This document shows, one piece after another, positions 9,540-63,610 of a DNA stretch of 64,000 nucleotides. The position numbers and the translations under genes are program-made. A model generated the notes under the pieces. It saw only the letters and a program-made list of their open reading frames with translations. It searched no databases and was not told where the DNA came from. Numbering within the stretch: position 1 is the stretch's first letter; every line of letters begins with the position of its first letter. This DNA is from a virus. The stretch lies in the IMG/VR virus record IMGVR_UViG_3300045988_113168. One strand, written 5' to 3'.

Positions 9540-10256
9540 ATGACTGTTGATTTGATCGCGTACACACAGCGAGTTGTTCCTACAAGTGATAAGAATCCTT
9601 TAGATATTGTGGAGGAAGCTGCGAGTATTTGTTACGATTCTTCAATGACTGACGATTATAAGATTGCCAAGGGATGTAAGGCAAGCGGTCACTATTCTGT
9701 GCTTGAGCACATCAATTTTACGTTTTACGTCAAAGATGTAAGCCGAGCACTTCTGGCGCAGATTAGTCGTCATCGACATATTAGCATGAGCTGCCGCAGC
9801 CAGCGTTATTGCAACGAGGATGGATTCAAATATGTGAACCCGTTTACCGGTGAAGATGCGGATGTTTTCGATAATATGATGTCGGACATTGATACCGATT
9901 ATCAGATTCTCAAGAAGTATCACAACGCCAAAAACGAAGATGCCCGTGCAGTTCTGCCAAATGCTTGCTGTACAGAGTTTTACATTACGATGAATGCTCG
10001 TGCTTTGATTGAGATGAGTCATCTTCGACTTTGTTCCAGGGCTCAAAAAGAAATCCGCGAGATGTTTACAGAAATGAAGAAGGAAGTTGCACAGGTTTGT
10101 CCTGAAGTAGCAAACTGGATGGTTCCTTCCTGCGAGGCTAATCCGAAGTATCCGTTCTGCCCAGAAGGTCGTGGTTGCTGTGGTCGTCACCCGAAGCTGG
10201 CAGATGTTTATAAGTCTATTGAAAAGAATAAGGAGGTTATTGATGGAAACACTTGA
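9540..10256 (+). CDS. thyX: Flavin-dependent thymidylate synthase ThyX
   Basis: ThyX signature SRHRHISMSCRSQRY (RHRxxSxxxxSQRY). RBS AAGGAG. Confidence 0.9.
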   Translation: MTVDLIAYTQRVVPTSDKNPLDIVEEAASICYDSSMTDDYKIAKGCKASGHYSVLEHINFTFYVKDVSRALLAQISRHRHISMSCRSQRYCNEDGFKYVNPFTGEDADVFDNMMSDIDTDYQILKKYHNAKNEDARAVLPNACCTEFYITMNARALIEMSHLRLCSRAQKEIREMFTEMKKEVAQVCPEVANWMVPSCEANPKYPFCPEGRGCCGRHPKLADVYKSIEKNKEVIDGNT

Positions 10257-24347: not shown

Positions 24348-25175
24348 ATGATTATTGACTGCAAATCTATCGCACAATATATCAAAAATAAAATCAAGAA
24401 TATTATCGCAGAAGATGACTACGCTCCTGTTTTATATATTTATCAAGTGGGGAATAACCCTGCGTCCAATGCTTATATTCGCGGCAAGCTGCGTGACTGT
24501 GAAGAGGTGGGAATCGAAGCAGAGCTTATTAAATTGCCAGAAAATATCAATGAAGACGAATTAAACAATAAAATACTGGAAGATTATAATTGGGAAGATG
24601 TGGACGGTATCATTGTCCAGCTCCCGCTGCCAAAACATATCGATCCCAAAAATATTTGTATTCCAGATGAACTTGATGTTGATGGCTTTAATTCCACATC
24701 CAAATTTCAGCCATGTACTCCACTTGGTGTTATGAAGATTTTCGACTCCATCGGTTACGATCTGGATGGCAAGAATGTGCTTGTATGCGGTCAATCTGAT
24801 ATTGTTGGTCGTCCGCTGGTTGATATGCTGATTAAGCGCCACTGTAATGTGATCTCTGTGAACAGCAGCGGAAGTTTTATGAAATGCACGGCTCTTGCAA
24901 TGGATATGGTCGATGTGATCATCTCTGCAGTCGGAAAACGTAATTTCATCACACCGCTTGGTCTTGATCGAGTAGAGGTCTGCATCGATGTTGGCATCAA
25001 CTATGACGAAAACGGAAAGCAGCACGGTGATTGCGCTGACGCTGTTTATGAGATGGAGAATATCAAAGTTACACCTCGTATCGGCGGTGTTGGGCTTATG
25101 ACACGTGCCATGCTACTTTATAATGTATGTGTGGCAAAGTACGGAGCAGTGAAGATGGAAGAGGTGATTGGATGA
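24348..25175 (+). CDS. folD: Bifunctional methylene-THF dehydrogenase/methenyl-THF cyclohydrolase FolD
   Basis: YIRGKLRDCEEVGI, DGIIVQLPLP, PCTPLGVMK, GQSDIVGRPL and GGVGLMTRAMLL motifs. RBS AAAGGAGG. Confidence 0.85.
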   Translation: MIIDCKSIAQYIKNKIKNIIAEDDYAPVLYIYQVGNNPASNAYIRGKLRDCEEVGIEAELIKLPENINEDELNNKILEDYNWEDVDGIIVQLPLPKHIDPKNICIPDELDVDGFNSTSKFQPCTPLGVMKIFDSIGYDLDGKNVLVCGQSDIVGRPLVDMLIKRHCNVISVNSSGSFMKCTALAMDMVDVIISAVGKRNFITPLGLDRVEVCIDVGINYDENGKQHGDCADAVYEMENIKVTPRIGGVGLMTRAMLLYNVCVAKYGAVKMEEVIG

Positions 25176-25439: not shown

Positions 25440-26606
25440 ATGATAAGACGTAAAGATAATAATGGCAAAGTTTTAAAAGACGGCGAGAGCCAGAGAAAGG
25501 ATGGGAGATACCAATATAGATGGACAAACAAACTTGGAAAACGCTCAATAATATACGCCACTTCACTTAAAGAATTGAGAGAAAAAGAAGCTGAAATCCA
25601 AGAAAAACTTAATTTGGGTACAACGTCTACTTCAAAAATCACAGTGTACCAATTAGCAAAAAGACATCTCGAAGAAACAAAACTTACTATTAGGCCAAGC
25701 AGCTATAAAACAAAATCGCAGAATTTGAAAATCTTTCAGAATCACCTAATTGGGGAAATGAATGCAACTGATATTTTAGTGCGCGATGTAAAACAATTTG
25801 CACGAGAATTGGATAACGAAGGATATTGTTATACAACAATCAGAGATGTCATGTCTTTAGCTAGACCGGCATTTCAAGAAATGTTTGATGAGAATATAAT
25901 TCCTAGAAATCCATTCGTTTTTAAATTAAATACAGTTGTCAAATGTGACTCAAAAGAAAAAGAAATATTAACAGAAGAGCAGTATCAAAATCTGATCAAG
26001 TTCATGAAATCTAGTCGAGTATATAAAAGGCATGTTGGGATGGTGATGCTTTTGCACGAGACAGGACTTCGAGCAGGAGAATTATGCGGGCTAACAAAAA
26101 AGTCATTTGATTTTGATAACAACACTGTTACTATATCTCATCAGATGGTGTACGATGGAAAGAGCGGCGGGCTGTATTTAGCACCTACAAAAACAGAAAG
26201 TGGGATAAGGACTATCCCATTATCTAAAGACGCCATCATTGCTTTTGAAGAAGCGGTAAAACAACGTCCGATTGTAAAAGCAGAGAGAATAATAGATGGG
26301 CAAGCCGACTTCTTGTTTATAGCAAAAACTGGAAGGCCCTATACGAATAAAAACCTTGTTAGAATTTTTGAAGGACTAATCAAAGCATATAATAGTTGCC
26401 ATGATGAACCATTGCCTGAAGTCACTGCCCACAGTATGCGCCACGAATATTGTACACGGCTTGTCAAAGCCAAGATGGATGTTAAATCGGTTCAATACCT
26501 CATGGGGCATTCGTCGCCCGATATAACCTTGAAAGTGTATACTCATATCTTAAAAGAAGAGACCGAAGCAGAGGCAATCAAACAGTTTAATAGGATTGTT
26601 TCCTAA
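25440..26606 (+). CDS. int: Tyrosine recombinase/integrase (Tn916-type with N-terminal arm-binding domain)
   Basis: N-terminus RKDGRYQYRW... Catalytic residues in HETGLRAGEL, AHSMRHEY and LKVYTHI. Confidence 0.85.
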   Translation: MIRRKDNNGKVLKDGESQRKDGRYQYRWTNKLGKRSIIYATSLKELREKEAEIQEKLNLGTTSTSKITVYQLAKRHLEETKLTIRPSSYKTKSQNLKIFQNHLIGEMNATDILVRDVKQFARELDNEGYCYTTIRDVMSLARPAFQEMFDENIIPRNPFVFKLNTVVKCDSKEKEILTEEQYQNLIKFMKSSRVYKRHVGMVMLLHETGLRAGELCGLTKKSFDFDNNTVTISHQMVYDGKSGGLYLAPTKTESGIRTIPLSKDAIIAFEEAVKQRPIVKAERIIDGQADFLFIAKTGRPYTNKNLVRIFEGLIKAYNSCHDEPLPEVTAHSMRHEYCTRLVKAKMDVKSVQYLMGHSSPDITLKVYTHILKEETEAEAIKQFNRIVS

Positions 26607-43184: not shown

Positions 43185-45698
43185 TCAAGTGGTCGATGGG
43201 TTATTGTTCTTATTCACGTCAGAGCGTAAATCAGGGAAGTATTGGTCAAGCATCCAGTCTTGATAGAGGTTATATTTACTTTCCTCTCCATTGTGGCCTA
43301 CAATATAGGGGTAATAGGGGAAATAGCGGCTCATTGTCAGAGACATTGTGCCCTCTCCAAGATTGATACTAAAGTTCTTAATGATCCAATCGACCGGAGT
43401 TTTACTGTTCAAATATTTTGCTGCATATTGAATTTTTTCGTTTACATCGAGCCACGGAACTAACAAAATAGGCACCACCAACCCATCGGTTAATCGTGCC
43501 TTCTTCCATAATTCATATTTAGCAACTTCCATTGCCTTTTCATCCGTGGTATAGTTGTCATAGTCTCCGCCCGAAAGTATTTCATTGCGACGACCAATTT
43601 TTTCAATTGAGAATTTTGCGTTATACAAATCATCGATATTGTCTGGATCAGTCATGCAGACATATTCAAGATTATCGCAGTTTTCTTCTTTTTTTTCTGC
43701 GGCAAGTTTATCGCCGGTCGGTACAGTATCTACCAATTTGACCATAGCATGAGATTGCTGCTGCCCAATAAAATAGAAGTGCTTTGTATCAGGGAACCAC
43801 TGAATGACATAATACTTTCCCGCTTCCATGATAGAAGGTTCCTGCTCAACGTCGTTACCATCAGCGTTAGGAACAGATTTATAAAGCAGGGAAGTTTTTG
43901 TTGTAGTCTTCTGTTCAGTCCCGCCACCTCCATCGGCCTTAACTTCTGTTGTCACAAAATTAACAATTATATTCAAGGTTTTGCTTGTGATTTTTGCAGG
44001 CATGATAAACGATATATTCGCTTCATCATCAACAGCAAGTTCTTTTACGGTCAGTGTAAGAGAATTCTTTTCGGAAGAATAAGTTGCAGTCGAAGAATAT
44101 GCGTCAGAATCGATTGTAGCACCAAACACTTCAACACAGTTTCGAACCGTAGAATAATCCACTGTGGCCGACTCACCATCTGCCGTCACCAAACTTGCAA
44201 ATAAATCTGGGTCGAGTACAGGCGGGTCATCAAATCCACTCGGAATTTCGTGACATACGAACACGTCATCATCGAAATACATCTCAAATGGATAGTAGAG
44301 GTCGCGCAACTCAGTCAAAATCTGCCACAAAGTTGTACCAGTCTCATATTCCAAATCGTAGGGAACATTACGCGTCCAATAATCAATCACGCATTTGCTA
44401 AACTCGCTCATCGGCTGTTCAGTTAAGACTGTTTTAATAACAGGAGCGATACGTGTTCCTTTGTTGATTTTTGTTTTTAGACCAGTCAACTGTCCAGCCA
44501 AATCGCCATTCAGTCGCGCCACAAGATCTACGCAAGAGCATTGCACTGTATTCGTAGTTGCGTTATATGTAAATCCATTTGACGAGATAGAAAAGCAACC
44601 TTGATTAAACCAGTGAACGTCTTGATTTTTAGAAAATACATTTATACGTTGCACAGATACTTTTTCGAATTCTTTATTGAACGACTCATTAAGCTTCTTC
44701 TTCGCTTGAATAACCTCGTCTTGAACATCGTGCATAGAATAACCAACATAAATGCTAGTAGTACCGTATTCTTCTTGAAGCTCTTTTTCACTCCAACCAG
44801 CAATAGCACTGACATCAGCAGCAGATAACATACTACCGTTTACTGTTTGTCCCTGTATTGCGGCAATCATATTATGAACCTTAACAGATTTTCCCCAAAG
44901 TGTCATAGAAATACCTGTTTTATCTTTGAGTAGAATCGTAGCCGGATCGGTAGATGTACCAATAACTCTAGAAAGGTACTTGGATATTTCTGAATTACAT
45001 AGAGGGATTAAATCACCATCATCAGGTTGAAAAAGAGGAGTGTATGCAATTTGTAGACCATTAAATTTATCGTCGCAACCAAGAACAGTAGAATAATCTC
45101 CTTTATTGATTATGGCTTCCGGGTCTGGTTCAAATGCTTTTTTGAATTCTGAAAAAACTAAAGAACTAAGCCATTTCCCTATGGTATTTACAAAAGTCGT
45201 CTCACCATTCATCTCCTTTACAAATTTAGAATAGTAAGACATATTGTCATCGTTCCATTCAATCACGCCACGATTGATGTTGTCGATATTCCCGTATTTT
45301 GCATGACCTTCTTGAGTGATTTTTGAAACTAAAGCATTATATTCTGCTTTGGCTTTTTTATATCCAGCAGATTCTTTTGTCTTTTTTTCAAGTTCTGGGT
45401 ACGAGAGGGAAGTAGTTTTGGCTCTTCCTTTTAGTCCGATAAAAACACGAACATTTTTGCTTATCCAGTCCTCCTCATCAAAAGCGGAGACAACACTCTT
45501 TTTGCCGAGATACAACGTAGTATTAAAGGTGCGACGAATGTCTGACTCCGAATCAACACTTACAGTTCCATCAATCGCAATGCCTTCCAAAGAATCTACA
45601 GTTGCGAAATCTTTGTCCAATAAATCAATGCGACAATATATATGAGGAGAATGGCTTTTTAAAAGAGCGAGGTCTTCATCTGTAGGTAAGTACTTCAT
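43185..45698 (-). CDS. Tal-like tail tip/baseplate hub protein
   Basis: 837 aa. RBS GGAGGT. ATGA overlap with the upstream Dit-like gene. The call rests on position and size. Confidence 0.55.
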   Translation of the reverse strand: MKYLPTDEDLALLKSHSPHIYCRIDLLDKDFATVDSLEGIAIDGTVSVDSESDIRRTFNTTLYLGKKSVVSAFDEEDWISKNVRVFIGLKGRAKTTSLSYPELEKKTKESAGYKKAKAEYNALVSKITQEGHAKYGNIDNINRGVIEWNDDNMSYYSKFVKEMNGETTFVNTIGKWLSSLVFSEFKKAFEPDPEAIINKGDYSTVLGCDDKFNGLQIAYTPLFQPDDGDLIPLCNSEISKYLSRVIGTSTDPATILLKDKTGISMTLWGKSVKVHNMIAAIQGQTVNGSMLSAADVSAIAGWSEKELQEEYGTTSIYVGYSMHDVQDEVIQAKKKLNESFNKEFEKVSVQRINVFSKNQDVHWFNQGCFSISSNGFTYNATTNTVQCSCVDLVARLNGDLAGQLTGLKTKINKGTRIAPVIKTVLTEQPMSEFSKCVIDYWTRNVPYDLEYETGTTLWQILTELRDLYYPFEMYFDDDVFVCHEIPSGFDDPPVLDPDLFASLVTADGESATVDYSTVRNCVEVFGATIDSDAYSSTATYSSEKNSLTLTVKELAVDDEANISFIMPAKITSKTLNIIVNFVTTEVKADGGGGTEQKTTTKTSLLYKSVPNADGNDVEQEPSIMEAGKYYVIQWFPDTKHFYFIGQQQSHAMVKLVDTVPTGDKLAAEKKEENCDNLEYVCMTDPDNIDDLYNAKFSIEKIGRRNEILSGGDYDNYTTDEKAMEVAKYELWKKARLTDGLVVPILLVPWLDVNEKIQYAAKYLNSKTPVDWIIKNFSINLGEGTMSLTMSRYFPYYPYIVGHNGEESKYNLYQDWMLDQYFPDLRSDVNKNNNPSTT

Positions 45699-46357
45699 GT
45701 TGTACCTCCTACCGGCAAATATTCGCTCAGTCCATTACTGTACATATCATCTTCACTCTCAATAGATCCGATTTCGACAAAGTTGAAACTCAACGTACCT
45801 TTGTCATAATGCTCAGAACAACTTGTAGTAACACTGCCATTTACTCCAATTAGCCACTCACGCCCATCAAACATTTTGAGAACTTTTGCGTCTCCGTTAG
45901 TAAGCCATGCTGAGATTTCTTTACGGTAATCATTTCCACCGTCAACATCAAATTCATCTTGAGCCATATCGAATTCAATACCAACACCCGAAAAATCACC
46001 AGAATAATAGTTCGCTTCATTGCCAAAATACAGATAGGGGTATTTGCTACTCATGGTTTCGACGATAGAAGCAGTGCGTTTTAGCTCAACACTGTCTACC
46101 TTTGGCTCAAGAAGAATGTGATAAGATGTTTCTCCATCTGTAATAATTGCGCCATCAAATTCACTGACTACTATCTTTTTAACATAGCCCTTTTCAATAG
46201 TATTAACAACAGGAGACACAGCATATTCATAAGGCTGTTTGCGCCCAGCCGCATACCAGTCAGTGTGTTCCATTATGACATATCCGGTATTTTCTGAATG
46301 CAATTTTATTCCATGAATAGTATCAGAGAATGGTTTAGTGACGTTCTTTTCGGGCAT
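45695..46357 (-). CDS. Dit-like distal tail protein (possibly the C-terminal part of a TAG-readthrough fusion with 46466-47551)
   Basis: 220 aa. Only a weak AGGA upstream. In frame with the upstream ORF across two TAGs. Confidence 0.55.
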   Translation of the reverse strand: MPEKNVTKPFSDTIHGIKLHSENTGYVIMEHTDWYAAGRKQPYEYAVSPVVNTIEKGYVKKIVVSEFDGAIITDGETSYHILLEPKVDSVELKRTASIVETMSSKYPYLYFGNEANYYSGDFSGVGIEFDMAQDEFDVDGGNDYRKEISAWLTNGDAKVLKMFDGREWLIGVNGSVTTSCSEHYDKGTLSFNFVEIGSIESEDDMYSNGLSEYLPVGGTT

Positions 46358-46465
46358 GACGCTAATCCTAAAATACGCGATAATATTCTTATAATTTACA
46401 TTCCAAGATGATTTATTCTAAGTTCCAACATTTCGTGTCTTGTTAAGCATTGCAGAAATCGATTT

Positions 46466-47551
46466 CTATAGGTTTTTCATAAAAGAACTAAGAGAGGAAA
46501 AACGATCCAATGCTTCATTATAGGTATATTCTTTTCCGTCGGAATAATATTTAATGCTTGTTTCCGTATAGCCTAAGAATTTTTGGTTTTTGTCATATGC
46601 TATAATTCTAGCAATATATCCATCAGCCGATATTTCGACTGACTTTAAATCACTTGCCGGGATTAGATTAGTGCTCATTGAGATGTTATCTGTAGTAAAT
46701 ACTCCACTTTGACTAACATAGCCATTTGACCAGTTGGGCAATAAGAGCAAATCGTTTGATAAATCAACTTGTTTTTCATAAATAGTCATCCATGTGGTAT
46801 CTAAAGGCTTTTTGCGCTTAAACCGAAGATGAGTAATGTCACTCTTCACATTGGCTGGATATTTTGCAAAAAGGTTAATACAACCACGCCATTTATCGTT
46901 TCCTGCATCAAAAATTACTCCATCAATTTGTTCACTATATTTCGTCTTAAACTGTTTGAACCCAGTATCAAGCTGGTAACCTCCAATTGATTCTGCTTTA
47001 GCACGAACATAATAAACGCTATTATTGTCAAGGCCATCAACATAAAAACTCTTCATAGAGTCACGGTGATAAAAACATTGTGACTTTTTGATTTCGTTTT
47101 TATTAGAGTCATAAAGATAATATTCATATCTATTGATAACTTCACCCTCAGCCGTTTTGTAGGTATAATCACAATCAAAAGAGTATGAAGGTGTAAAGAT
47201 AATTTTAGAAGAGGAAATGTCGGAGAATGCCCTGAATTTAATGGAAGGTTTCTCGTGACAATAAAACAGAATCTTGTCACTATATTCGCTGAAAGTGTTC
47301 GTACCAGTTAATCTGCAACGAATCATGATATAATAAGGGTCATGCTGATTTACAAGGACCCCACCTTTAATTACAAATTGTCGAGCTAGGCCAGTTCCAG
47401 TGGGAGCTACTGTGCCAAATTTATAAACAGTGCTATCTTTTGACTTGAAGACGATATAGGCAACTAAGTCAATATCGGCATATGCTCCGAACTGGAATGA
47501 AGCGTCTTCGTTAGCACTAAATACATTGATTTTTGATAGAATTGGTTTCAC
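46466..47551 (-). CDS. Tail structural protein ending at TAG 46466-46468
   Basis: GTG start after GGAGGTGA. 361 aa. Confidence 0.6.
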   Translation of the reverse strand: MKPILSKINVFSANEDASFQFGAYADIDLVAYIVFKSKDSTVYKFGTVAPTGTGLARQFVIKGGVLVNQHDPYYIMIRCRLTGTNTFSEYSDKILFYCHEKPSIKFRAFSDISSSKIIFTPSYSFDCDYTYKTAEGEVINRYEYYLYDSNKNEIKKSQCFYHRDSMKSFYVDGLDNNSVYYVRAKAESIGGYQLDTGFKQFKTKYSEQIDGVIFDAGNDKWRGCINLFAKYPANVKSDITHLRFKRKKPLDTTWMTIYEKQVDLSNDLLLLPNWSNGYVSQSGVFTTDNISMSTNLIPASDLKSVEISADGYIARIIAYDKNQKFLGYTETSIKYYSDGKEYTYNEALDRFSSLSSFMKNL

Positions 47552-48949: not shown

Positions 48950-51900
48950 TTAATTTCGCTTACTCATTTTTTGAGAAAGTTTGTTGGGAAGATTGCGGAC
49001 AATTTCGTTTGCCAAATCTTCTGCTCCACCAACAGGGTTCTGAATAACAATATCTCCAATGGAAATATCAATATTAGAACCGCCGTTAGAAGATAGTGAA
49101 GCCGTTCCGTACTTAGACATCTGATCCTGGAACCAAGCATCTGGATTGCCACCCATCTCGAAGAGACGAGAAGTAATATCTGCAGGAACGACTCCATCGC
49201 CGGTTTCAAGATAAGTATAACGTCCAGCTTGCGGTTGACGAACCAGAAGCTCAGAACCTTGCTCGTCAACATTATACTTGCCGGATTTTTGAATGCTTCG
49301 AGAACCAGAAGCTTTTTTACCAGTGATTTTTTCTTTAATTTTGTCAACAAAACTCTTTTTCTCAGAAGAACTACTGGAACTATTAGAAGATTTGCTAGAC
49401 GAAGTAGAAGAACTCTTGTCTTTATCCCGAGAACTACTAGAAGAACTACTCTTACCCGTAACTGCATTATAAGCACTCTGAACGCCGTTCTTAATACTAC
49501 TAACAATATTAGAACCAGTCTTCCATGCAGAAGAATTAGTGATTTTATCTTTGGTGGAACTTATAGCATTGTTTACCTTACTTCCTACCGTAGAGTTGTC
49601 CCATTTCTCTTTGACATTAGAAGCAATTTCTTTAGTCGTAGTTACTAATCCACTGACAGCGTTGTTTACTTTGCCGCCGAGCCAAGAATTGTTCCATGCG
49701 TTTTTTGCACTACTAACTGCGTTGCTTCCAACTTCATAGATGTCTTTACCAAGCTCTAACAAGCTCTTACCGCCAGAAACAGTCGTGGGAGTACCACTGC
49801 CGCCACCAGAAGACAAACTACTCGAAGATGTGGAACTATTGCTGGTAGTATTTTTGGTAGTAGGAGTTGTCTGACCTTTATCGTACAGATCGTTTCCAAT
49901 CGTACCAAAACTATCACGAATAGAAGAAATAGTGTTATCGCAACTCTTAGTGATGCTATCATAAGCTTTCCCCATGACCCACGTAATATTTTCACTAAGA
50001 TCGATAGCACCGGGCTCAACATTCTTCCAGGCATTTGCCATTTGGTCAGGGAGAACTTTATTCAAAGTCTCTTCACTCTTGGATTCGATTGTACTATATG
50101 CGCCATTGATTGTGCTTTGAGTATTATCGGCCAAGTCACGGACACCGCTTTCGGCCATGCCCCAGCTGCTATCGAAACAAGCTCGCATATCATAGAGCAT
50201 CTTTTCGGTATCACCGGTGGTATCAGCCCAAGCTTTAGAAATAGTAGACTCCGTTTTAGCACTCAGGTTGCGGATACCACCACCACACTGATTCCAACTA
50301 TTCTTCATCTTACTAGAGATGGAATCCATTGCATTAGAACAGCTATCTTTCATAGAATTGAAAGAGTTCGCCATTTTATTAGCGTTAGACTCACTCATCT
50401 CGTCAGTCATAGATGCCATTTTGTTAAAACCAGCAGTATATGTGTTTTGCATTGACTGGAACAGTTTTTTCGTGATACCCTCGACCTGTTCTGCGTTCAG
50501 TGCGGTATTGTCTCCGATAGCGGCATAGGTATCTTTAACCAGCTTCTGCATATTGCTATACATTTCTTTACTGGTTGCATCAATCTGATCGTCGCTCAAA
50601 CCAACCTCTTTTGCCATATCCTTCCATGTCTTCTCAAACTGAGATTTCATAGAATCAAGCTGGGCAAGTGTGTTGGATTTGGAAGAAGAAATGAGATTGT
50701 CAAGAGGATTACCTGTACTACTATTACCAAAGCCAAAGAATTTACTAATTGAATCCTTTATTAAGCTTCCGCTATTTATTAAGCCTCCGCCGTTTATTAC
50801 GCTTCCGATATTCTTTATCTTATCAAACCATTTCGAAATCGAAGAGTTTTGACCAGAAGAGTTTATAGTGGACTTGGTTTTATCTGCGAATGTAGTAAAC
50901 TTTAAATTCAACCCGCCTAGAGTCTTAACGCTCTTTGAAAGCAGCGTAGGAATAAGGCCGGTCTTATTATCATCACGAATATCGTCAACGGCCTCAACTA
51001 CTTCATCAACTTTAGAGTCAATGGCAGTGTTTTTGCGAGCTTGAGGCGCAGAAGTAATAGTCGTATATCCGCTGGAAGCAGCAGAGTTGCGAGAGCTAGG
51101 TATTTTAGAGGCTACGTTCTTGACCCAGCCGATAGGATTCTTGGCGATTCCCATTAAAGTCGCGGTTTGTTTTGCGGGGATAACTCCGTCACCTTTTTCG
51201 AGTTGAGTCAGGCGTCCCTTCTCGGGGGAGCGAACGATTATCTCTTCGCCTTCCTCATCGACATTATAAGTACCAGCCTTTTCGACTTTCTTAGTACCTT
51301 TAGCAAATCCAAACAGTTTACCAACCCAGCGAATTGGAGCAGTCACAATGTGTCCGATTGTACCAAGTAAGCCGCGTTTCTTTGTACCATCGCTAGATGT
51401 GCCACCAAACAAGAATTTTCCAATGCCACTAACGGCTTTAGTGATCGTTTTGCCAATACTCTTAACTATTTTACCAAGAGTTTTGCCAATACCAGTTACA
51501 GCTTTCCCGATAGTGGAACCGATTTTTGCGAGACCGTTTGTAAATGAGCCGCCACCGATTGCACTGACAGCAAGCGTGCCGCCAAGGAGAATCGTACCGA
51601 TGACAGGAATATGACTGACTGCAGCCGCAATAGTTCCAGCGACACCAGTACCACCTGCAGTACCTACAGCGGCAGTTACCGTTCGACCAATTCCTTTGAA
51701 AATACCAGCAATACCAGAAAACAGCTTGGTTCCACCCAATGTAGTACCGATGCCACCGAAAATTGAGCCAAGCCCACCAACCGCTTTTTGGGCAATAGAT
51801 GCGACTCCACTGAATCCCTTCTGGAAGATTGACATTAGACCGCCACTGCCAGAGAAAATTCCCTGTGCTGCAGAGACTACAGTCGTTTTTACATTGCCAA

Positions 51901-54900
51901 GAGATTTTACAATAGCCTGTCCTAGTTTAGAAATCTAACTAGTGCTCTCTCCAAGGAACCCTTTTGCTGCAGCGTACTTATTAGAGCCTCCAACGCCAAG
52001 GAAGCTCTTTCCTGCGTCCAAGAGGCGTCCCCAGAATCCTTTACCAGAACTCTTATCAGAGAACGTACCAACCGCACGCTGCAGACGATTCTACAGACCC
52101 GTAATTCCACCGTTCTGAGTAGAACCATTCAGATTGCCAAGCACGTCTCCGAGCTTAGTCAGTGTATCAATCAGTGTCTCAAGCTTGGTGATAACATTAG
52201 AAACATTAGTTGCTCGCTGGACCGCCTTCATATTGGAGACAACAGAGGCCATAAATCCATCGTAGTGACCTTCCATCTCTGCAAAAGTCATAGCCTCGAA
52301 CTGAGACGTATATTTCAGTTTCTTCTGATAGTCGTCCCAGCTTGTGCCAATAAGGTTAGTGGCTTCCTGAACCTTATCTTTGAGCTTGTTCAGCCGGTCG
52401 ATTTCTTCCTGTTTCTTATACTCACGGCGTTTGCTGTTGAGGTCACTCTGAGCGTCACGAACTGTACTTGCATCAGCCTCCCACTCGTAACCATTCTCGC
52501 CATAGACGCGAGTGGTCTTATTGGCCTGTGCTTTCGCGAGAGCATCCTCGGCTTTTTGCAGTTCAATCGCACGCTCTTGAGCATCATTCTGCTCATTCAG
52601 CGCGTCGATACGTTTGTCGATAACATCAATCCATGCATCACCCTGAATCTTCAGGTCGTTGGACTTTTTATCATTGAGCTTATTGAAAATATCAAGCAGT
52701 GAAGAGAAAAGGTCTTTAAGGTTAGAGATGACAGACTGTAACTTTTGAGCCTCAGTACCCATCCCCTTCATATGGTCGGTAACATCCCAAGTACCATTTG
52801 CTACCTTTTCAAGAATTTCGGCGTAACGATCTCCGAGGTCAGTACCCTTATATGTTTCTGCAAGGACTTTTAGCTGCTCAATGTAAAGGTCTCTAAAGGC
52901 TTCCTTGTTAAAGACGAGTTTCCCGCCTTCTTCTTTAAGGCAAGCCGCATACTTTGGATTAAGAGACATATACTTCTGGATGGTATCTTGACTTAATTCT
53001 CCATAAGCGTTATACTCATCTACAATATCAAACAAATCGTTGAATGCACTCTGGTAGTCATCCATTGAATTATTGATTTTGCTAAGAGTACTTCCGATTC
53101 CGTTAATATAATCCTCAATGCTGAGTGCATTGCTTGCAATCTTATTCTTTGCATCTTCAAAGCCCTTGGCAAGATATGTTCCAGCGGCTCCGCCAGTCTC
53201 CTTACAAGCTGCAATCATCTTGTCGAGACTATCAAGGAACATATCCTTAAAAGCGTCGCTGTTGTAATCAATATCTCCAGTCTCGGGATTCAATGCCCCA
53301 GCGTACTTGTCATTCGTAAACAAGTCTGTGTTATCATATAGGTCACGAATTGCCTGATACTTTTTCTCAACATCGTCAGAATCTAGCAGTCCAAACGGAT
53401 TGTCAATCTTGTTTTTGCTAACATCGGACAGCCCAGAGAATGCGGATTTTATAGCGTCTGTCTTTTCTTTGGCATCTGCCATCGCGGTGCCGTAGCCCTT
53501 GATGGCATCAGTTAACTGCTCAAAAGAAATGGTTTCGGAATCGACACTAGAGTTCAACCAGTCAAGAATCTTCTTCATCTCGCCAGCAGACTTGCCACCA
53601 TCATTAGCTGCATTCGCTTCCTCAAGCTGCGCTCTGACAAAAGTGCGGAATTTTGCGGTATTAAGTTCAAGTTTTCCATTTTGCTCAGTTAAGCAAGCAG
53701 TAAACTTATCATCAACACCGATTAACGACTTCATGGTGTCTGCACTAATATAGCCATATTGGTTATATTCTTTCATCGCTTTTGTTAAGGTATCAAATGC
53801 GGATGCAATATCAGATACAGACTTCGCGGTAGATTTATTGTTCTTGTTGGTCTTATTTGTCGGGAACCCATTAAGCTGATTTGTTAGTTTTTGTCCACCC
53901 CTTAGAGCAGCGTTCATATTGGTGTACAACAGAGAAAGCTGAGTATTTGTGCGATTCGTGATTTCCTCTAGCTTTGCAGGATCTACACCGCGTTCACCTG
54001 CTTTTTCGACTTCGTTCGCAAACTCTTGAGCCGCGCTATATGTAGCGGTTGCCGCAGTAGCATTTTTCAAAGCGGGGAGAAGATTCTCAAGAGCAGTCTT
54101 TTCGGCCTTGGTTTTCTCTTTTAGGTTATCAGTGCTTTCAGCTGTGTCATCGGCAGTAAGGTTTGCAACCTCATGTTGTGCATTAGAAAGAATTGTGGCG
54201 GCAGCTTCTGCATATTCAGCGGCAAGTAATTCGGCATAGCTCTGTTTATTTATCTGGAGCTTACCATTAACAAGCTCAAGGCAATTCAAATACTCGGTGT
54301 TCATCGACAGTAAAGACTGAAGAGAATCGAGACTCATGTAGCCATACTGATTGTACTCTTCCATTGCACTGGTAGAAGCTTTATACGCAGACTGGATTTC
54401 ATCCATTTTGGAAGAAATATCTTCCATCTTCTGTGCGCCAGCAGCCAATGCGTCAACACCATTTGCAGAAGACTGAGCTACAATACCAACTTGAACAAGT
54501 GCTTGGATAAACGCATTTACACCGTTTGTGTCAGCAGAGAAGTCCATGTCGGCCAAAGCTTTACGAAGATTTGCGAGAGCTTGCGCTTGATCATCGGACA
54601 ATCCTTCGTTTGTACCCCACAAGAGTTCATTCAGCTTACTTGCATCAAATCCATCAATCGTATCTTTCAGAGTTTGAACAGCAGAATTTACCTTATCGAA
54701 AGTAAAACTGACATCCATACTGTTATTATTGTCATTCTGCCAAAAATCAACTGCTTGAAGTTTTCTACGAGCATTCGTGTTATTGTTGATGGCATCCGTT
54801 GAGTCATTGTAAGAATTTACATCATTACGGAGAGCAGATTGTTCATCAAGCAAGAACTGATACAGACTATGATACGTTCCACCGGCAGCTCGCTCGGCTT

Positions 54901-55789
54901 CGGTAGTATTATCAATAACATACTTTAAGGCTTTGCCAACTTCGTTGTAATAGTCAACAATAGAATCCGCATCATTTAACTTGTCAGGTCCGTAACCACC
55001 AAACTTATTAAAGACATCAATACCAGCATTTTTAATCTGGTCACCCATATCCATTTCAGGAGCCGACCAAACAGTAAGATAATGCGTCCGATTATTCTTC
55101 TTGGCTGTATCAACAAGCTTGTCGCTTTGAGCATCTTTGTTTTGTGTCAACTCATAACGAGATGCCTCCAACTGCTCCGCTGTAATATCCTGAAGTAAAC
55201 CAAGCTGCTCTTCATATTTACCATTTTGCAGGTCAATCTTACCAAGTTTGTTTTCATCAAGCGTTCCTTGTTCTTTCGCAAGATCAAGAATCTCTGTCTG
55301 AATATCTTTTGCTTGGTCAAAGTCCTCAGTATCCCAACCAGACTTGTCGCCAAGTTCTTCATACGCACTGACTAAGTCCTTTAAGGAGAAAGTTGTATCC
55401 TGTGCTGCGTCCGCCGCTTCCTTAGACTTCGTTGCGACATTTTGCACTCGTTGTGCCGCTTCCGTAATCTTCTTAGTGCCCCAAGAGATGAGCAGGCCAA
55501 TTCCAACACCCAACGCGGCATTGAGCAATAAAGCTCTTGCGCGAAGGGCAAGTAGTTTAAGGGAAAAACCTTCAGTTGCGTCGCCTGCGGCCTCTGTGTT
55601 AGCTTTACTTTGCTTCAACGATGTGATAAAATCAGAAATAGAAGGCTTAGTTCCATCAAGAGAACGCTGATAGGAGAGAATTGCATTTCTGAGTTGAAGA
55701 ATTTTCGCTTTTACGTCGTTCCAAAACTCATTTTTTACACCATCTTCGTCAGCAGTAAACAAGAAAGATAATATCGAAATTTTAATCAT
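48950..55789 (-). CDS. Tape-measure-like protein, C-terminal portion; 2279 codons including two in-frame TAGs (52091-52093, 51935-51937)
   Basis: Track ORFs 52091-55789 and 48950-51835 share one frame (3954 nt apart). The 85 bridging codons have no TAA/TGA and are Gly-rich like the flanks. Long coiled coils, Gly-zipper hydrophobic blocks, and two G.YNVDE.G.E..V motifs. No SD before ATG 55789. Confidence 0.7.
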
Positions 55790-55802: not shown

Positions 55803-56210
55803 ATGAATAAAATTCTATACTGCCCGTGGTGTGAAAAATATGTTAAGGGTGTTTGGTATTCATGCCCATTTTGTAGCGCACAAACTATCTATATAAAAGC
55901 ATGGGATAAAAAATCTGACGAAGAAAAGAAAGAATGGTTAAAGAAATTTCCAAAAGTTGACCCACCAAGACCAATCAAAGACAAATCACTACTTCGTGAG
56001 GCGGAAAAATTCGACAAACAAGCTCGTGCTGAACTTGCTCAAGAGGAAGCTCGCCTTGCTCAATACAAACCAACTTGCCCAGTATGCCATTGTCCTGATT
56101 TGGAGAAAATCTCCGGCTTTGACAAGACTGTGGATATAGCGGTCTGGGGCGTATGGTCGAGAAAGGCGCATAAGCAGTTTAAGTGCAAAGCGTGCGGATA
56201 TGAATTTTAA
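55803..56210 (+). CDS. Double zinc-ribbon protein, copy A
   Basis: RBS GAGGAG. CPWC...CPFC and CPVCHCPDLEKIS...CKACGYEF. Confidence 0.65.
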   Translation: MNKILYCPWCEKYVKGVWYSCPFCSAQTIYIKAWDKKSDEEKKEWLKKFPKVDPPRPIKDKSLLREAEKFDKQARAELAQEEARLAQYKPTCPVCHCPDLEKISGFDKTVDIAVWGVWSRKAHKQFKCKACGYEF

Positions 56211-56222
56211 AGGAGAATAAAA

Positions 56223-56663
56223 ATGCTTCAAAGAACAACAAACGGTGTTCCTCAAAAAGATTTTTGTCTTCATTCTCCTGCAAGTGTAGAATTCAACGGA
56301 AAGGAAGTTCGTGGACTTACAGCTTATTGGGATACTGGAAGCTCCGTATGCTGCATTGCAAGAGAAATTGCCAACAAACTTGGCTTACCCATCATGCCAA
56401 CCCAACAAGAAGTTAAGTCAATCACAAACTCTAAAATGGCTGACATTACTGTCTGCACATTAAAAATTGGATATGGCGATGACATAATCCTTCCTGATAC
56501 ATTGTTTTGCGTTATGGACCCGGAAGATTTTGAATATGAACTTCTTATCGGACAAGATATTATAGGATATGGAGAACTACATACCAAATACAATCCAGCA
56601 ATGGAACGGATTAGACTTGAGTTTGAGATTGACCCTTCTGTAATTCCAGACCCTGAGATTTAA
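56223..56663 (+). CDS. Retropepsin-like (clan AA) aspartic protease, copy A
   Basis: RBS AAAGGAG. Active-site WDTGSS and LLIGQDII motifs. Confidence 0.65.
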   Translation: MLQRTTNGVPQKDFCLHSPASVEFNGKEVRGLTAYWDTGSSVCCIAREIANKLGLPIMPTQQEVKSITNSKMADITVCTLKIGYGDDIILPDTLFCVMDPEDFEYELLIGQDIIGYGELHTKYNPAMERIRLEFEIDPSVIPDPEI

Positions 56664-56760
56664 GTATAGCCTTCCATTGTGAAAAAATTCGTTTCCGTTC
56701 TTCCTGAGTAAACGGAGGCATCTTCCGTACTCTTACGGAAACAATGTTAAAATCGTTCAT
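56611..56760 (-). CDS. Possible small ORF (49 aa)
   Basis: GGAGGT 6 nt before the ATG. Overlaps the 3' end of protease A by 53 nt. May be spurious. Confidence 0.25.
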   Translation of the reverse strand: MNDFNIVSVRVRKMPPFTQEERKRIFSQWKAILKSQGLELQKGQSQTQV

Positions 56761-56786
56761 TCAAATACCTCCGATACAAAAGAGAG

Positions 56787-57209
56787 ATGAAATCTATGGA
56801 AAAATATGTACGGTATTGCCCATTTTGCGACAAATATTACCATAAAAGAGATTTGTTGTGCGCGTTTTGTTTGAGAGATACTATTCTATTGCCTCAATGG
56901 AACGGAATGAGCGAGCAGAAAAAAATCAATTGGAGGTTTACAAACAGACCCAAAAGAGATATTTCAGAATTAGACCCGAATTTTGTTAAAGAGATGCAAG
57001 ATAAAGCCAATGCCTTTGACGCTCAATATAGAGCCGATTTAGAGGAAAAGGAACATCCGAAGTATGTGCCCGCCTGCCCTGTGTGTGGATCGCCAGACTT
57101 ACGCAAGATCAGTACAACCTCAAAGGTTTTGGATGTTGCTTTCTGGGGATTTGCCGCTGGCAAGCCAAAGAAAACATATCATTGCAACAATTGTGACTAT
57201 GAATTTTGA
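56787..57209 (+). CDS. Double zinc-ribbon protein, copy B
   Basis: CPFC...CAFC and CPVCGSPDLRKIS...CNNCDYEF. Paralogue of 55803-56210. Confidence 0.65.
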   Translation: MKSMEKYVRYCPFCDKYYHKRDLLCAFCLRDTILLPQWNGMSEQKKINWRFTNRPKRDISELDPNFVKEMQDKANAFDAQYRADLEEKEHPKYVPACPVCGSPDLRKISTTSKVLDVAFWGFAAGKPKKTYHCNNCDYEF

Positions 57210-61057: not shown

Positions 61058-63493
61058 TCAAACGCAACAAACATAAGAGGGCATATTAACTTTACCCGCA
61101 CCATTCTTGAGCTTTCCGCTTATCTGCATTACGGACAACACGCCAGAGATGGTAGCTGTAATGGCCGGAATAGAACCTGCAAGGTTGACCATTCCGTCTG
61201 CTGCATCAACAATCTTTGTTGCAAGAGTAACAAAGAATTTGATGAGGTCACTGCTCATAACGTCGTTTGAGAATTTCTCAAAGCTGGCGTTAAGCTGCTT
61301 TAAGCGACCCTCAATTGAATCCATCATGCGCTCTTGTTCAGTCATTGCTGAATTAGAGCTGTTAGCGGCATCTTCCATTGATTTTTCAGCAATGGAGAAT
61401 TGCTCGATCACGGAAAGTACCGCATTCGAGTTCCTTTTGCCGCCAAGCATCTCTGTGACGTTAGCTTTACTAACATCAGTAAGTTTATCCCATACGGCAG
61501 AAATCTCTTTCAGGATCTGATATGTACTCTTAAATTCTGTACCGGCGGCATCCTTCATAATGTCTACGCCAGTTAAAGATTTCAATTCACTTCGCAGTTC
61601 AGAAACAGAACTTGCCATATCATCAACTGAAACGCCAAATGCCTCTGCGTCAGTCTTACTGGCTCGCAGATACATTGAAATTGTTTTTAAAGTTGTGCCT
61701 ACGGTATCCGGGTCCTGAAGTACAGAGTTGGCCGCACTAATCAACGAAACGGACTCTTCAAACGAGTTCCCGGCTGCCGATAATGCGCTTGCCGATCTGA
61801 CGAGTGCCTCCGCAATACCACTTTCGGAAATGGGTTCGTTGTTGCCCACTGAGTTAAGAACATTGACGACGTGTTCTACTTCGTCAGCTTCCATTCTAAA
61901 TCCCTTTAGAATAGAGACTAGATAAGAAGCTGCGTCAGATGCACTATCAATTCCATCACCAATGTTACTTAGGACAGTGGACCACTTTGCAAGCTTTTGT
62001 GATTCGTCCAGTGTATAGCCTAGACGAGACCATTCTGCTGTACTGTCAATAACATCAGAGATAGAAGCACCAAGCTCACGCGCTTGACTTGAAGCAGACG
62101 ACAAAAAGCTTGAGTATGCCGATTCAGTCTCATTCGTGACTTTTTTCAAGTTAGTCATAGATGTATCTATATCTACGACGTTATTATAAACTTCTCGTAG
62201 ACCCTGTTTAACCATAGCCACGCCAGCCATAGCGATAGCAGTCTGGAAGTGCTCCTTAAACAGACGAGACAGTTTTTGACCAAGAGTTTCTGTAGTGGCC
62301 CCACATCTGCTGGCCTCAACCTCAAGGTTTGATAGTCTTGCACTAAGATCAGTAACATCGCCTTCACAGCCAGCAGCAGAAGCTTTTATTCCGTTTAAAC
62401 TATCAATTAGCCAAGAATATTTACTTTTATTTGCAATAGAGTCTTCTAACTTCGTTGCACGTTCATAAACACTCTTAAACTTCGTCATGTCAACATTGGC
62501 TTGATTCAAATCTCTAAAATCAAATCCAAGTTCTTTTAAATGTTGACTTGTAGAATCAATAGTTGTATCAAGAATCTTGCATTTTTTATCAAAGTCTTGA
62601 ATTGCTTTCCCTGGTGTAGTGTTCTCAATAGAAGCAAGCTGATCTCGCAATTCTTTTAACTTTCCAGATGTTTTTCCAGTGCCATCTTCTCCATATAAAT
62701 ATTTTTTGATATTATCATTTTTATAGTTGGAGTTATTCTTGGAATAGTTTTCAAGAGACTGAATCTTTTTTTGATACTTTTCATACTCGGATTCTTGAGA
62801 TGTGAGAGCCTTTTTTAAATCATCTGCAATTTCTTGATTTTGTTTTTTTAGTTCTTTTGCAACCGAATCAGCACCTTTTGCAGTATTTCTGTCAGCATTG
62901 AATTTTCCGGTTTTTTCGATATCCTCAAGCTTTAACTTCTGAGATTCCGTAATTACTTCTTTTGTTTTAGTCTTGAGTTTATCCATCTCATCGTTGATTG
63001 CGCTCAATCTAGTCTGTACCGCTTTCAACTCAGATGATTTGTTTCCATTAGCAATTAACGATGCTTCATCCGCTTTTAGCTTTGCTTGACGATTTGCAAG
63101 GCTGAAAAGGCGAGAAATATCACTTTTTGAAGTATCCTGTGTTTTTGTGGAACCAGACTTTCCGGTATCAACCTTAACTGTCTGCTTTGCCGCAGATTGC
63201 ATAGCTTTTTTAAGCTGTGCGGTTACTTTGCTCTGGTCGATCTTAACATCAAGTGTGACCTTTGGAGTTTTTAGTTTTCCACTCTTGACTACCTTATCAA
63301 GCGCATCATTTATATTACGGATAGTGTCGTTTTGATTTACTCCAAAAGCAATTTTTACTGGTTTTTCTTTATAATGCTCCTTAACAGAATTAAATTGCTG
63401 GTCTAATTCTTTTTTATTTGTGTCAATAACAACCTTGACCTTAATGGCTGTTACGGCAGAAGACTCTGTGCCAGTATTTTCTTTTTCATCCAT
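61058..63493 (-). CDS. Tape-measure protein, N-terminal portion (TP901-type core region)
   Basis: ATG 63493 after GAGAGGTGA. N-terminal coiled coil. The core ...AGVAMVKQGLREVYNNVVDIDTSMTNLKKVT...GASISDVIDSTAEWSRLGY...ISESGIAEALVRSASAL... resembles the TMP core family as I recall it. Ends TGA TAA. Confidence 0.75.
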   Translation of the reverse strand: MDEKENTGTESSAVTAIKVKVVIDTNKKELDQQFNSVKEHYKEKPVKIAFGVNQNDTIRNINDALDKVVKSGKLKTPKVTLDVKIDQSKVTAQLKKAMQSAAKQTVKVDTGKSGSTKTQDTSKSDISRLFSLANRQAKLKADEASLIANGNKSSELKAVQTRLSAINDEMDKLKTKTKEVITESQKLKLEDIEKTGKFNADRNTAKGADSVAKELKKQNQEIADDLKKALTSQESEYEKYQKKIQSLENYSKNNSNYKNDNIKKYLYGEDGTGKTSGKLKELRDQLASIENTTPGKAIQDFDKKCKILDTTIDSTSQHLKELGFDFRDLNQANVDMTKFKSVYERATKLEDSIANKSKYSWLIDSLNGIKASAAGCEGDVTDLSARLSNLEVEASRCGATTETLGQKLSRLFKEHFQTAIAMAGVAMVKQGLREVYNNVVDIDTSMTNLKKVTNETESAYSSFLSSASSQARELGASISDVIDSTAEWSRLGYTLDESQKLAKWSTVLSNIGDGIDSASDAASYLVSILKGFRMEADEVEHVVNVLNSVGNNEPISESGIAEALVRSASALSAAGNSFEESVSLISAANSVLQDPDTVGTTLKTISMYLRASKTDAEAFGVSVDDMASSVSELRSELKSLTGVDIMKDAAGTEFKSTYQILKEISAVWDKLTDVSKANVTEMLGGKRNSNAVLSVIEQFSIAEKSMEDAANSSNSAMTEQERMMDSIEGRLKQLNASFEKFSNDVMSSDLIKFFVTLATKIVDAADGMVNLAGSIPAITATISGVLSVMQISGKLKNGAGKVNMPSYVCCV

Positions 63494-63610
63494 ACTGTTG
63501 GTCACCTCTCTTTTCCATTTTCAACAATTCCTTTCAAAATAAAAAAGAGAAGCGGCCAGCTTCTTCAAGCCAGCCTCCTCTCATTCAAATTTTCCAAATA
63601 AATTGTGTGA

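Follow-up and report, generated by a model that had tools for sequence, protein, structure and literature searches.

The stretch of DNA analysed here, referred to below as the window, comprises 64,000 nucleotides of the virus record IMGVR_UViG_3300045988_113168 from IMG/VR, and the subject of this work is a giant tape-measure-like gene on its minus strand that contains two in-frame TAG codons. The left half of the window is given to replication and nucleotide metabolism, with genes for DNA polymerase III alpha, a helicase/exonuclease, a ligase, NrdD, ThyA, a FolD-like enzyme and a tyrosine integrase; genes for lysis and the tail follow in the right half, on the opposite strand. An open reading frame (ORF) of 1232 amino acids (aa) at 52091-55789 (minus strand) terminates as ...NGGITGL-TAG (52093-52091). 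The frame then continues with 51 sense codons, NRLQRAVGTFSDKSSGKGFWGRLLDAGKSFLGVGGSNKYAAAKGFLGESTS, reaches a second TAG (51937-51935), proceeds through 33 further sense codons, ISKLGQAIVKSLGNVKTTVVSAAQGIFSGSGGL, and arrives at the ATG at 51835, which begins an ORF of 961 aa (48950-51835). The frame sum, 1232+1+51+1+33+961, is 2279 positions (sense or TAG), and the offset between the two start codons, 55789-51835, is 3954 nt or 1318 codons. An initial annotation, made from the sequence alone, had read the two ORFs as one frame running through both TAGs; its coordinates, codon counts, 2279-codon frame and 1318-codon offset were all exact on recheck. It had also reported no Shine-Dalgarno (SD) motif before ATG 51835, and we too found none when an SD-like motif was looked for upstream of this codon, against 28 of the 44 window genes, including nearly all large late genes, that have an SD of the AGGAG(G) type. 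The exact N-terminus of the giant gene is uncertain, since ATG 55789 likewise lacks an SD and adjoins a divergent plus-strand gene. Three plus-strand ORFs (135, 146 and 140 aa) lie at 55803-57209, between tail genes and divergent from the presumed start of the giant gene; the first of them has a good SD, and tail-chaperone genes would be expected at this place.

Comparison with relatives carries the case for a single gene. A blastn search of GenBank phages returned a single relative, the human-faecal MT835573.1 (74% nucleotide identity), and a scan of IMG/VR added 80 further loci, mostly on contigs of 110-150 kb, to give 81 loci with MT835573.1; altogether, 394 related loci were fetched. With only TAA and TGA counted as stops, the homologous frame, of approximately 2000-2500 codons, continues through the homologous point in every one of the 81 loci. 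In 15 of these, the gene is an uninterrupted ORF of approximately 2000-2300 codons with no TAG at all, and the remaining loci have one to three TAGs each, at various positions. The sole frame broken by TAA/TGA or a frameshift (L034, contig IMGVR_UViG_3300045988_095262) stops at codon 1643, probably through a genuine defect or an error of assembly, and forms a useful contrast to the TAG cases. The 85-codon bridge between the two ORFs is nearly identical as protein in relatives at about 74% nucleotide identity, and it is also present in TAG-free relatives. MT835573.1 reads across without interruption, as GGITGL-F(TTC)-NRLQRAIGTFSDKSSGKGFWGRLLDAGKS, its own in-frame TAG lying elsewhere. The first TAG of the giant gene is common to the 10 closest relatives, and the second occurs in the window alone among the fetched loci. 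These comparisons support the reading proposed in the initial annotation, and the two ORFs almost certainly constitute one gene in which TAG is read through by a suppressor. An intron or intein within the bridge was considered and rejected: an Rfam scan of the window returned nothing, and the bridge, conserved as protein, also occurs in relatives whose gene is uninterrupted.

The initial annotation had called the product tape-measure-like, and this label is plausible on the similarities found, although not exclusive. The downstream ORF (48950-51835) matches the PHROG families phrog_167 (2e-11) and phrog_4070 (1e-6), weakly but consistently; a Pfam search of the giant gene gave no match. By BLASTP, the giant gene resembles the annotated tape measure of Enterocloster phage PMBT24 (E=4e-13), a cultured, distant relative with a single annotated tape measure of 1508 aa. 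The conserved core of the PMBT24 protein aligns just upstream of the first TAG, and its C-terminal motif (GEKGxE...DG(I/V)VP...W) corresponds to 51125-51268, downstream of both TAGs, which places the bridge within a tape-measure-homologous unit. The motif, approximately 48 aa long with the consensus YNVDE(E/Q)G.E..V....GR.T.LE.GDGV.PA........NP..W, is duplicated, and the duplication suggests that some 660 aa were added after the ancestral end of the tape measure. Tail proteins are encoded downstream of the giant gene. Upstream of it, an 815-aa gene (61058-63505, minus strand) carries the Pfam tape-measure domain PF10145 (PhageMin_Tail), and its product matches the tape-measure protein (TMP) families of PHROG at 1.8e-76, far more strongly than the giant gene does. 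This phage therefore has two tape-measure-like genes.

The use of TAG as a sense codon extends to the whole family. Among the likely genes of the window, TAA is the terminator in 49 cases, TGA in 34 and TAG in 5, and the five TAG ends comprise two same-frame pairs, one out-of-frame ORF inside the giant gene and two doubtful small ORFs; TAG is rare as a true terminator in the window. In all fetched tail loci taken together, 366 in-frame TAGs occur among the 418,639 codons of real gene frames of at least 150 codons. For comparison, the same frames were extended past their TAA and TGA terminators under the same alignment criteria, and among 554 terminators there was only 1 distinct site across which a relative's protein aligned. 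This control replaced an earlier one, with TGA or TAA taken as sense, which was flooded by conserved out-of-frame translations and hence unusable. The single spanned site, REYLVKPTNMAA-TAA-AVASLGNSRPGTERN, lies in the upstream part of the tail loci (for example, L002 at ~2500 and L012 at 1-2064). In at least 20 loci the sequence flanking it on either side is conserved, and L012 has CAA in place of TAA; it could represent a conserved nucleic-acid element, or readthrough or extension at TAA. In the window itself, four in-frame TAGs are found in two genes (Table 1). The second gene joins the ORFs 46466-47551 (361 aa) and 45695-46357 (220 aa), and in 45 of 57 unique relatives it is an uninterrupted ORF of approximately 600 aa.

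Table 1. Features of the giant gene and of the second TAG-containing late gene in the window.
Feature	Position	Strand	Details
Giant tape-measure-like gene	48950..55789	-	2279 sense positions, two in-frame TAGs; frame comparison with relatives
First TAG of the giant gene	52091..52093	-	After ...NGGITGL; next base A
Bridge segment 1, 51 codons, coding	51938..52090	-	NRLQRAVGTFSDKSSGKGFWGRLLDAGKSFLGVGG...; protein-level conservation
Second TAG of the giant gene	51935..51937	-	After ...GESTS; next base A
Bridge segment 2, 33 codons, up to the internal Met	51836..51934	-	Without ribosome-binding site
Gly/Ala-rich hydrophobic block, just downstream of the bridge	51533..51778	-	Highly conserved with L001
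C-terminal-type motif, first copy	51125..51268	-	YNVDEEGEEIIV...GDGVIPA...NPIGW
C-terminal-type motif, second copy, at the C-terminus of the protein	49133..49276	-	YNVDEQGSELLV...GDGVVPA...NPDAW
Second late gene, tail protein	45695..47551	-	~617 sense positions, two in-frame TAGs
TAG of the second gene	46466..46468	-	Next base A; common to 8 relatives; others E (47), D (2)
TAG of the second gene	46418..46420	-	Next base A; TGG (Trp) in the 97%-identical relative L003

As for the amino acid that TAG stands for, the alignments point to tryptophan. When 77 unique tape-measure sequences were aligned with MAFFT, TAG was found in columns that are otherwise Trp in 75, 75, 70, 75, 67 and 71 of the 77 sequences, and further TAG columns are mixed Phe/Trp. 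When all late genes were taken together and the codon replacing each TAG was read from the nearest relative without that TAG, the 62 distinct contexts gave TGG 48 times, CAG 7 times, GAG 3 times and TTC, CTC, AGT and TAT once each. Codon usage would lead one to expect TGG at 7-25% of the one-step neighbours of TAG, the exact share varying with the transition bias (p<=8e-18), and the excess of TGG holds (p=4e-16) even against CAG alone, the other transition neighbour, which is twice as frequent as TGG. Judged by these counts (48 TGG versus 7 CAG), the family does not appear to follow genetic code 15, in which TAG is Gln, and the residue inserted at TAG is probably Trp for the most part. Apparent matches of TAG to Gln or Glu on the opposite strand were discarded as antisense artefacts, the TAG and CAG triplets there being the complements of synonymous Leu codons.

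Relatives of the window also encode a tRNA whose anticodon matches TAG. By walking two steps past the right end of the window through relatives, we reached a tRNA cluster that in the relatives lies approximately 15 kb beyond the window end, between a PhoH/phosphoesterase/GIY-YIG endonuclease block and the head genes. The cluster is variable, with 5-6 tRNAs among which Thr, Ser and Met are usual, and one slot in it is occupied by tRNA-Trp(CCA), by tRNA(CUA) or by neither, never by both. Among the cluster tRNAs, the acceptor stem GCGCCYA/TGGRCGT with G1·U72 and the discriminator G73 is confined to the Trp(CCA) and CUA tRNAs; every CUA variant found retains this stem, although the other arms have diverged, and of the four variants tested, three have Trp(CCA) as their nearest cluster tRNA, at 66-77% identity. 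A common acceptor stem is what would be expected if both tRNAs were substrates of the same synthetase. ARAGORN, which labels any tRNA with a CUA anticodon 'Pyl' by default, missed about half of these genes, whose T-loop is non-canonical and whose D stem has only 3 bp; the acceptor-stem pattern recovered them, and the Rfam tRNA model confirms examples. Altogether, tRNA(CUA) was found in 36 of 71 full-length cluster loci. It is carried by each of the seven genomes of the window's TMP clade whose cluster was fetched and, as judged by contig name, by 13 further contigs with TAG in the TMP gene. In the same region, a conserved spacer of approximately 107 nt follows tRNA(CUA) on its 3' side, before tRNA-Met (L242, 4225-4331), and a similar one follows tRNA-Trp(CCA) in L167; a GIY-YIG/NUMOD homing-endonuclease gene (L164, 2096-3130) borders the variable cluster (L164, 3254-4462), and odd cluster members include an 88-nt Thr(UGU) tRNA and 'Ser(ACU)' genes called with an anticodon loop of 8-9 nt.

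The distribution of in-frame TAGs follows that of the tRNA. At least one in-frame TAG is present in 32 of the 36 head-module loci with tRNA(CUA), in 2 of the 12 with Trp(CCA) and in 4 of the 23 with neither (Fisher p=6e-10). This test was made within loci, together with contig names, as the linking of tail to tRNA loci by exact overlap was ambiguous (the probes were identical in several contigs). Likewise, TAG is concentrated in late genes: per 10,000 codons it occurs 6.6 times in the tail module, 4.2 times in the tube region, 2.4 times in the head module, 0.35 times in the block upstream of the tRNA cluster and 0.15 times in the replication module, an approximately 40-fold enrichment in late genes. 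All four TAGs of the window are in late genes, with none in early genes, and all four are followed by A at the +4 position. Family-wide, T at +4 is found after 4% of TAG codons as against 15% of TGG codons (p=0.02), a modest effect that fits avoidance of strong termination contexts.

It is very probable, on these combined grounds, that the giant gene is a late gene whose TAG codons are decoded by a phage-encoded tRNA(CUA), with Trp the most probable insertion because this tRNA has the acceptor stem and the discriminator base of tRNA-Trp(CCA) and occupies the same slot. TAG would then be no terminator in late genes; the tryptophanyl-tRNA synthetase (TrpRS) of the host would charge tRNA(CUA) with Trp, and TGG and TAG would become near-synonymous there. 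The suppressor, presumably present in the window's own genome as well, would be expressed from where it lies, at the start of the late region. Before that time, translation of the tail genes would stop at TAG, and afterwards the yield of full-length protein would be set by competition with release factor 1 (RF1); with two TAGs in the giant gene, its full-length product would be made late and in limited amounts, to which a regulatory role might be attached. Within the family, some genomes lack both tRNAs, others have tRNA-Trp, and others again combine the suppressor with a few TAG codons. It is thus likely that we are looking at a natural UAG-to-Trp variant restricted to the late genes of a widespread family, with a suppressor that evolved from, and replaced, tRNA-Trp(CCA), its stages standing side by side and the reassignment at its very beginning. 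The family-wide use of TAG as sense, its alignment with Trp and the Trp-type suppressor tRNA(CUA) elsewhere in the genomes go beyond the initial annotation.

Several observations weigh against the decoding of TAG as Trp by this tRNA. The 62 codon contexts are not fully independent phylogenetically, and 14 of them are non-Trp, including the 7 with CAG (Gln), some of these at invariant Gln. Neither TAG of the giant gene is itself at a Trp position: the column of the first is hydrophobic, with Phe (39) or Ile (25) and elsewhere Leu, Ala or Met, and that of the second is variable (Thr, Lys, Glu, Pro or Ser), with GAG (Glu) in the closest relatives, such as L004, in an otherwise identical context. 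In the second gene, the TAG at 46468 aligns with Glu. The suppressor gene does not lie in the window, where no tRNA gene was found, and the tail loci have essentially none; in addition, L091 (contig 110062), which among the relatives comes nearest to the right end of the window, lacks a CUA tRNA in its cluster (L293). Inspection of approximately 100 of ~130 kb, including the surroundings of the tRNA cluster and the regions that precede it and the DNA polymerase, revealed neither a TrpRS nor a release factor. Finally, the anticodon is a major identity element for TrpRS, and the Trp-derived amber suppressor su+7 of Escherichia coli is largely mischarged with Gln, so that the residue inserted here could be mixed.

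A different primary role for the mid-gene TAGs, beyond standing in for TGG, would be programmed partial readthrough, giving either a fixed ratio of the 1232-aa to the full-length product or a delayed synthesis of the latter. Of the approximately 20 TAG columns in the gene, 4 lie within a linker of some 135 columns that joins the coiled-coil half to the Gly-rich half; a TAG is present in this linker in 63 of the 77 sequences, and three of its four TAG columns are non-Trp. Suppression in competition with RF1 would be expected to leave some truncated product, and the depletion of T at +4 can be read in the same way. The clustering may reflect selection for attenuation, selection for a short isoform or simply relaxed constraint. 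On the other side, no conserved readthrough signal was seen, though no search aimed at one was made. The linker TAG that is seen in 46 loci belongs to one of two diverged linker alleles and is essentially one event that spread, 15 relatives manage without any TAG, and most other TAGs are scattered at Trp codons of many late genes, as fits drift under suppression. We regard programmed readthrough as unlikely, but it does not exclude decoding by the suppressor and would add a function to it.

That TAG is sense by way of the suppressor, but with Gln (code 15) or a Trp/Gln mixture inserted, is a quite unlikely alternative. The 7 CAG contexts, some of them at invariant Gln, speak for it, and so does the mischarging of Trp-derived CUA suppressors by the E. 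coli glutaminyl-tRNA synthetase. Precedent does so too: Borges et al. (10.1101/2021.08.26.457843) describe TAG-to-Gln and TGA-to-Trp as the only reassignments in phages whose code differs from that of the host, code 15 is likewise the sole such TAG reassignment in the paper on phAss-1, and TAG was treated as Gln by Cook et al. and by Peters et al. (PMC9523058). However, Trp outnumbers Gln by 48 to 7 although CAG is the more frequent codon, and TAG occupies columns with Trp in 67-75 of 77 sequences, positions at which a Gln would be expected to disturb the protein severely. Furthermore, the suppressor retains the acceptor stem of the phage tRNA-Trp, and the Gln-aligned TAGs are singletons or pairs, whereas many Trp-aligned ones are common to between 4 and 59 loci.

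It is highly improbable that the TAGs are genuine stops that delimit two proteins of 1232 and 961 aa, the second started at ATG 51835. Gene callers do give this result under the standard code, and the N-terminal part alone resembles most of the PMBT24 tape-measure core. On the other hand, ATG 51835 has no SD in a genome with strong late-gene SDs, the supposed 85-codon spacer is conserved as protein, the frame is retained in 81 of 81 loci and uninterrupted in 15, the PMBT24 C-terminal motif maps downstream of the TAGs, and the TAGs of relatives are at many different places. Nonsense mutations in a decaying prophage, or sequencing or assembly errors, can hardly account for the TAGs either. TGG-to-TAG and CAG-to-TAG are single transitions and the second TAG occurs in the window only, but the first is found in 10 independent assemblies and other TAG sites in up to 59, and protein-level conservation continues downstream. 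Moreover, TGG mutates to TGA as easily as to TAG, yet only TAG interrupts these genes (1 spanned site among 554 TAA/TGA terminators, and 1 of 81 TMP frames broken by TAA/TGA or a frameshift), which rules against mutation and error alike. Pyrrolysine, to which the ARAGORN label 'tRNA-Pyl' and the Pyl systems of some anaerobic Firmicutes might point, is next to impossible, given that the label is a default, that the tRNAs are ordinary cloverleaves with a Trp-type acceptor stem, that TAG aligns with Trp and that the examined phage regions hold no pylS-like or pyl genes.

Among catalogued codes, only NCBI translation table 32, of the Balanophoraceae plastid, reads TAG as Trp. The codon and the residue are the same as here; yet the plastid code is used throughout a reduced plastid genome, whereas in this family the reading would be phage-encoded and restricted to late genes in a standard-code host. 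The E. coli suppressor su+7 (supU), a laboratory mutant, is a tRNA-Trp derivative that reads UAG through a CCA-to-CUA change of the anticodon; the phage CUA tRNAs, at 66-77% identity to tRNA-Trp(CCA), have diverged outside the acceptor stem and are not such one-step mutants. In the A1 protein of phage Qβ, programmed readthrough occurs at one fixed site, where UGA is read by the near-cognate tRNA-Trp of the host. The in-frame stop in a structural gene, the longer essential product and a possible mixture of short and long forms recall the present case, but here a dedicated cognate suppressor is encoded and the TAGs are scattered over many genes and positions.

Close parallels are the code-15 gut phages, namely the crAss-like phages, Lak and phAss-1/Phassvirus (Borges et al., 10.1101/2021.08.26.457843; Peters et al., PMC9523058; Babkin et al., PMC10607447). 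They share with the present family in-frame TAGs in late, structural and lysis genes, tape measures split by gene callers, a phage tRNA(CUA), a standard-code host, early genes that fit the standard code and depletion of TAG as a terminator. They differ in that TAG here aligns with Trp and the suppressor resembles tRNA-Trp, that TAG makes up only approximately 0.09% of late codons (4 TAGs in 64 kb, as against 28% of ORFs interrupted in phAss-1) and that the cluster has 5-6 tRNAs rather than the 36 of phAss-1. Membership of the window in phAss-1/Phassvirus itself was rejected: the genome size is similar, but that phage has TAG-to-Gln, 36 tRNAs and a 3149-aa tape measure, and it was not retrieved as a relative. 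The code-4 Firmicutes phages Jade, Sapphire and Agate (Borges et al.) also read a stop as Trp in late genes, with the suppressor upstream of late or lysis genes; their codon is TGA rather than TAG, however, and their module consists of tRNA(UCA), TrpRS and RF1, whereas no TrpRS or release factor is seen in approximately 100 kb here.

Kienbeck et al. (PMC10879173) reported in 2024 that 19.4% of 180 suppressor tRNAs adjacent to theta ribozymes score as the Trp isotype, mentioned the 'rarely reported code 32' and concluded code 15. These are gut-phage tRNA(CUA) of Trp type, as are those described here, but they rest on tRNAscan isotype prediction only, in contrast to the codon evidence from protein alignments and the co-occurrence presented above. 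The same study places theta (HDV-like, that is, hepatitis delta virus-like) ribozymes directly 3' of most phage suppressor tRNAs. Beside the present suppressor, Rfam detects no HDV-like ribozyme at E<=1, but no dedicated motif search was made and theta ribozymes may lie outside Rfam. In the literature on reading of TAG/UAG as Trp in phages, the isotype remark of Kienbeck et al. was all that we found, with no demonstration at the gene level; subscription journals were outside the search, and an earlier report is possible. The reading of TAG as Trp in late genes, most likely the case here through sparse recoding by a Trp-derived suppressor tRNA, is barely documented for phages.

The phage reassignments reported so far are TAG-to-Gln, TGA-to-Trp and, with code-25 hosts, TGA-to-Gly. 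A TAG-to-Trp case would show that a natural tRNA with a CUA anticodon can acquire TrpRS-type identity, and for genetic-code expansion, an amber suppressor of Trp type that functions in Firmicutes could be a useful part. The number of TAG codons tracks the suppressor among close genomes, which supports the model 'suppressor first, in-frame stops later' and makes it testable. There are practical consequences as well. Standard pipelines and code-15-aware ones such as prodigal-gv would either split such essential tail genes or translate TAG as Gln; tests based on coding density miss recoding this sparse, with its handful of codons per genome, so that the extent of recoding in phages is probably underestimated.

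The closest match in a bacterial genome is to a contig of a Faecalibacterium metagenome-assembled genome, with 90% identity over part of one protein; more distant bacterial matches are to Lachnospiraceae and other Clostridia, and the sole cultured relatives are Enterocloster phages. The family consists of human-gut phages of approximately 110-150 kb that probably infect Clostridia. The window is a mosaic, 88-98% identical to different IMG/VR contigs depending on the region and identical to none. Plus-strand genes at 25440-26606, 24348-25175, 10847-13057 and 9540-10256 belong to a set that, in a phage of approximately 130 kb, unites a tyrosine integrase with DNA polymerase III alpha, NrdD, thymidylate synthase and a FolD-like methylenetetrahydrofolate dehydrogenase/cyclohydrolase. 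Upstream of the tRNA cluster in one relative (L254, 5470-8253, contig IMGVR_UViG_3300045988_115187), a 927-aa protein matches Pfam PF05183 (RdRP, E=1e-13) and is possibly a single-subunit RNA polymerase of the YonO/crAss type that could transcribe the late genes; a gene for a ClpP-like protease adjoins it. The head-gene region of one relative (L235, 12383-12726) contains a group I intron according to Rfam (73 bits), which also detects a RAGATH-18 RNA (68 bits) in another relative (L188, 7619-7690).

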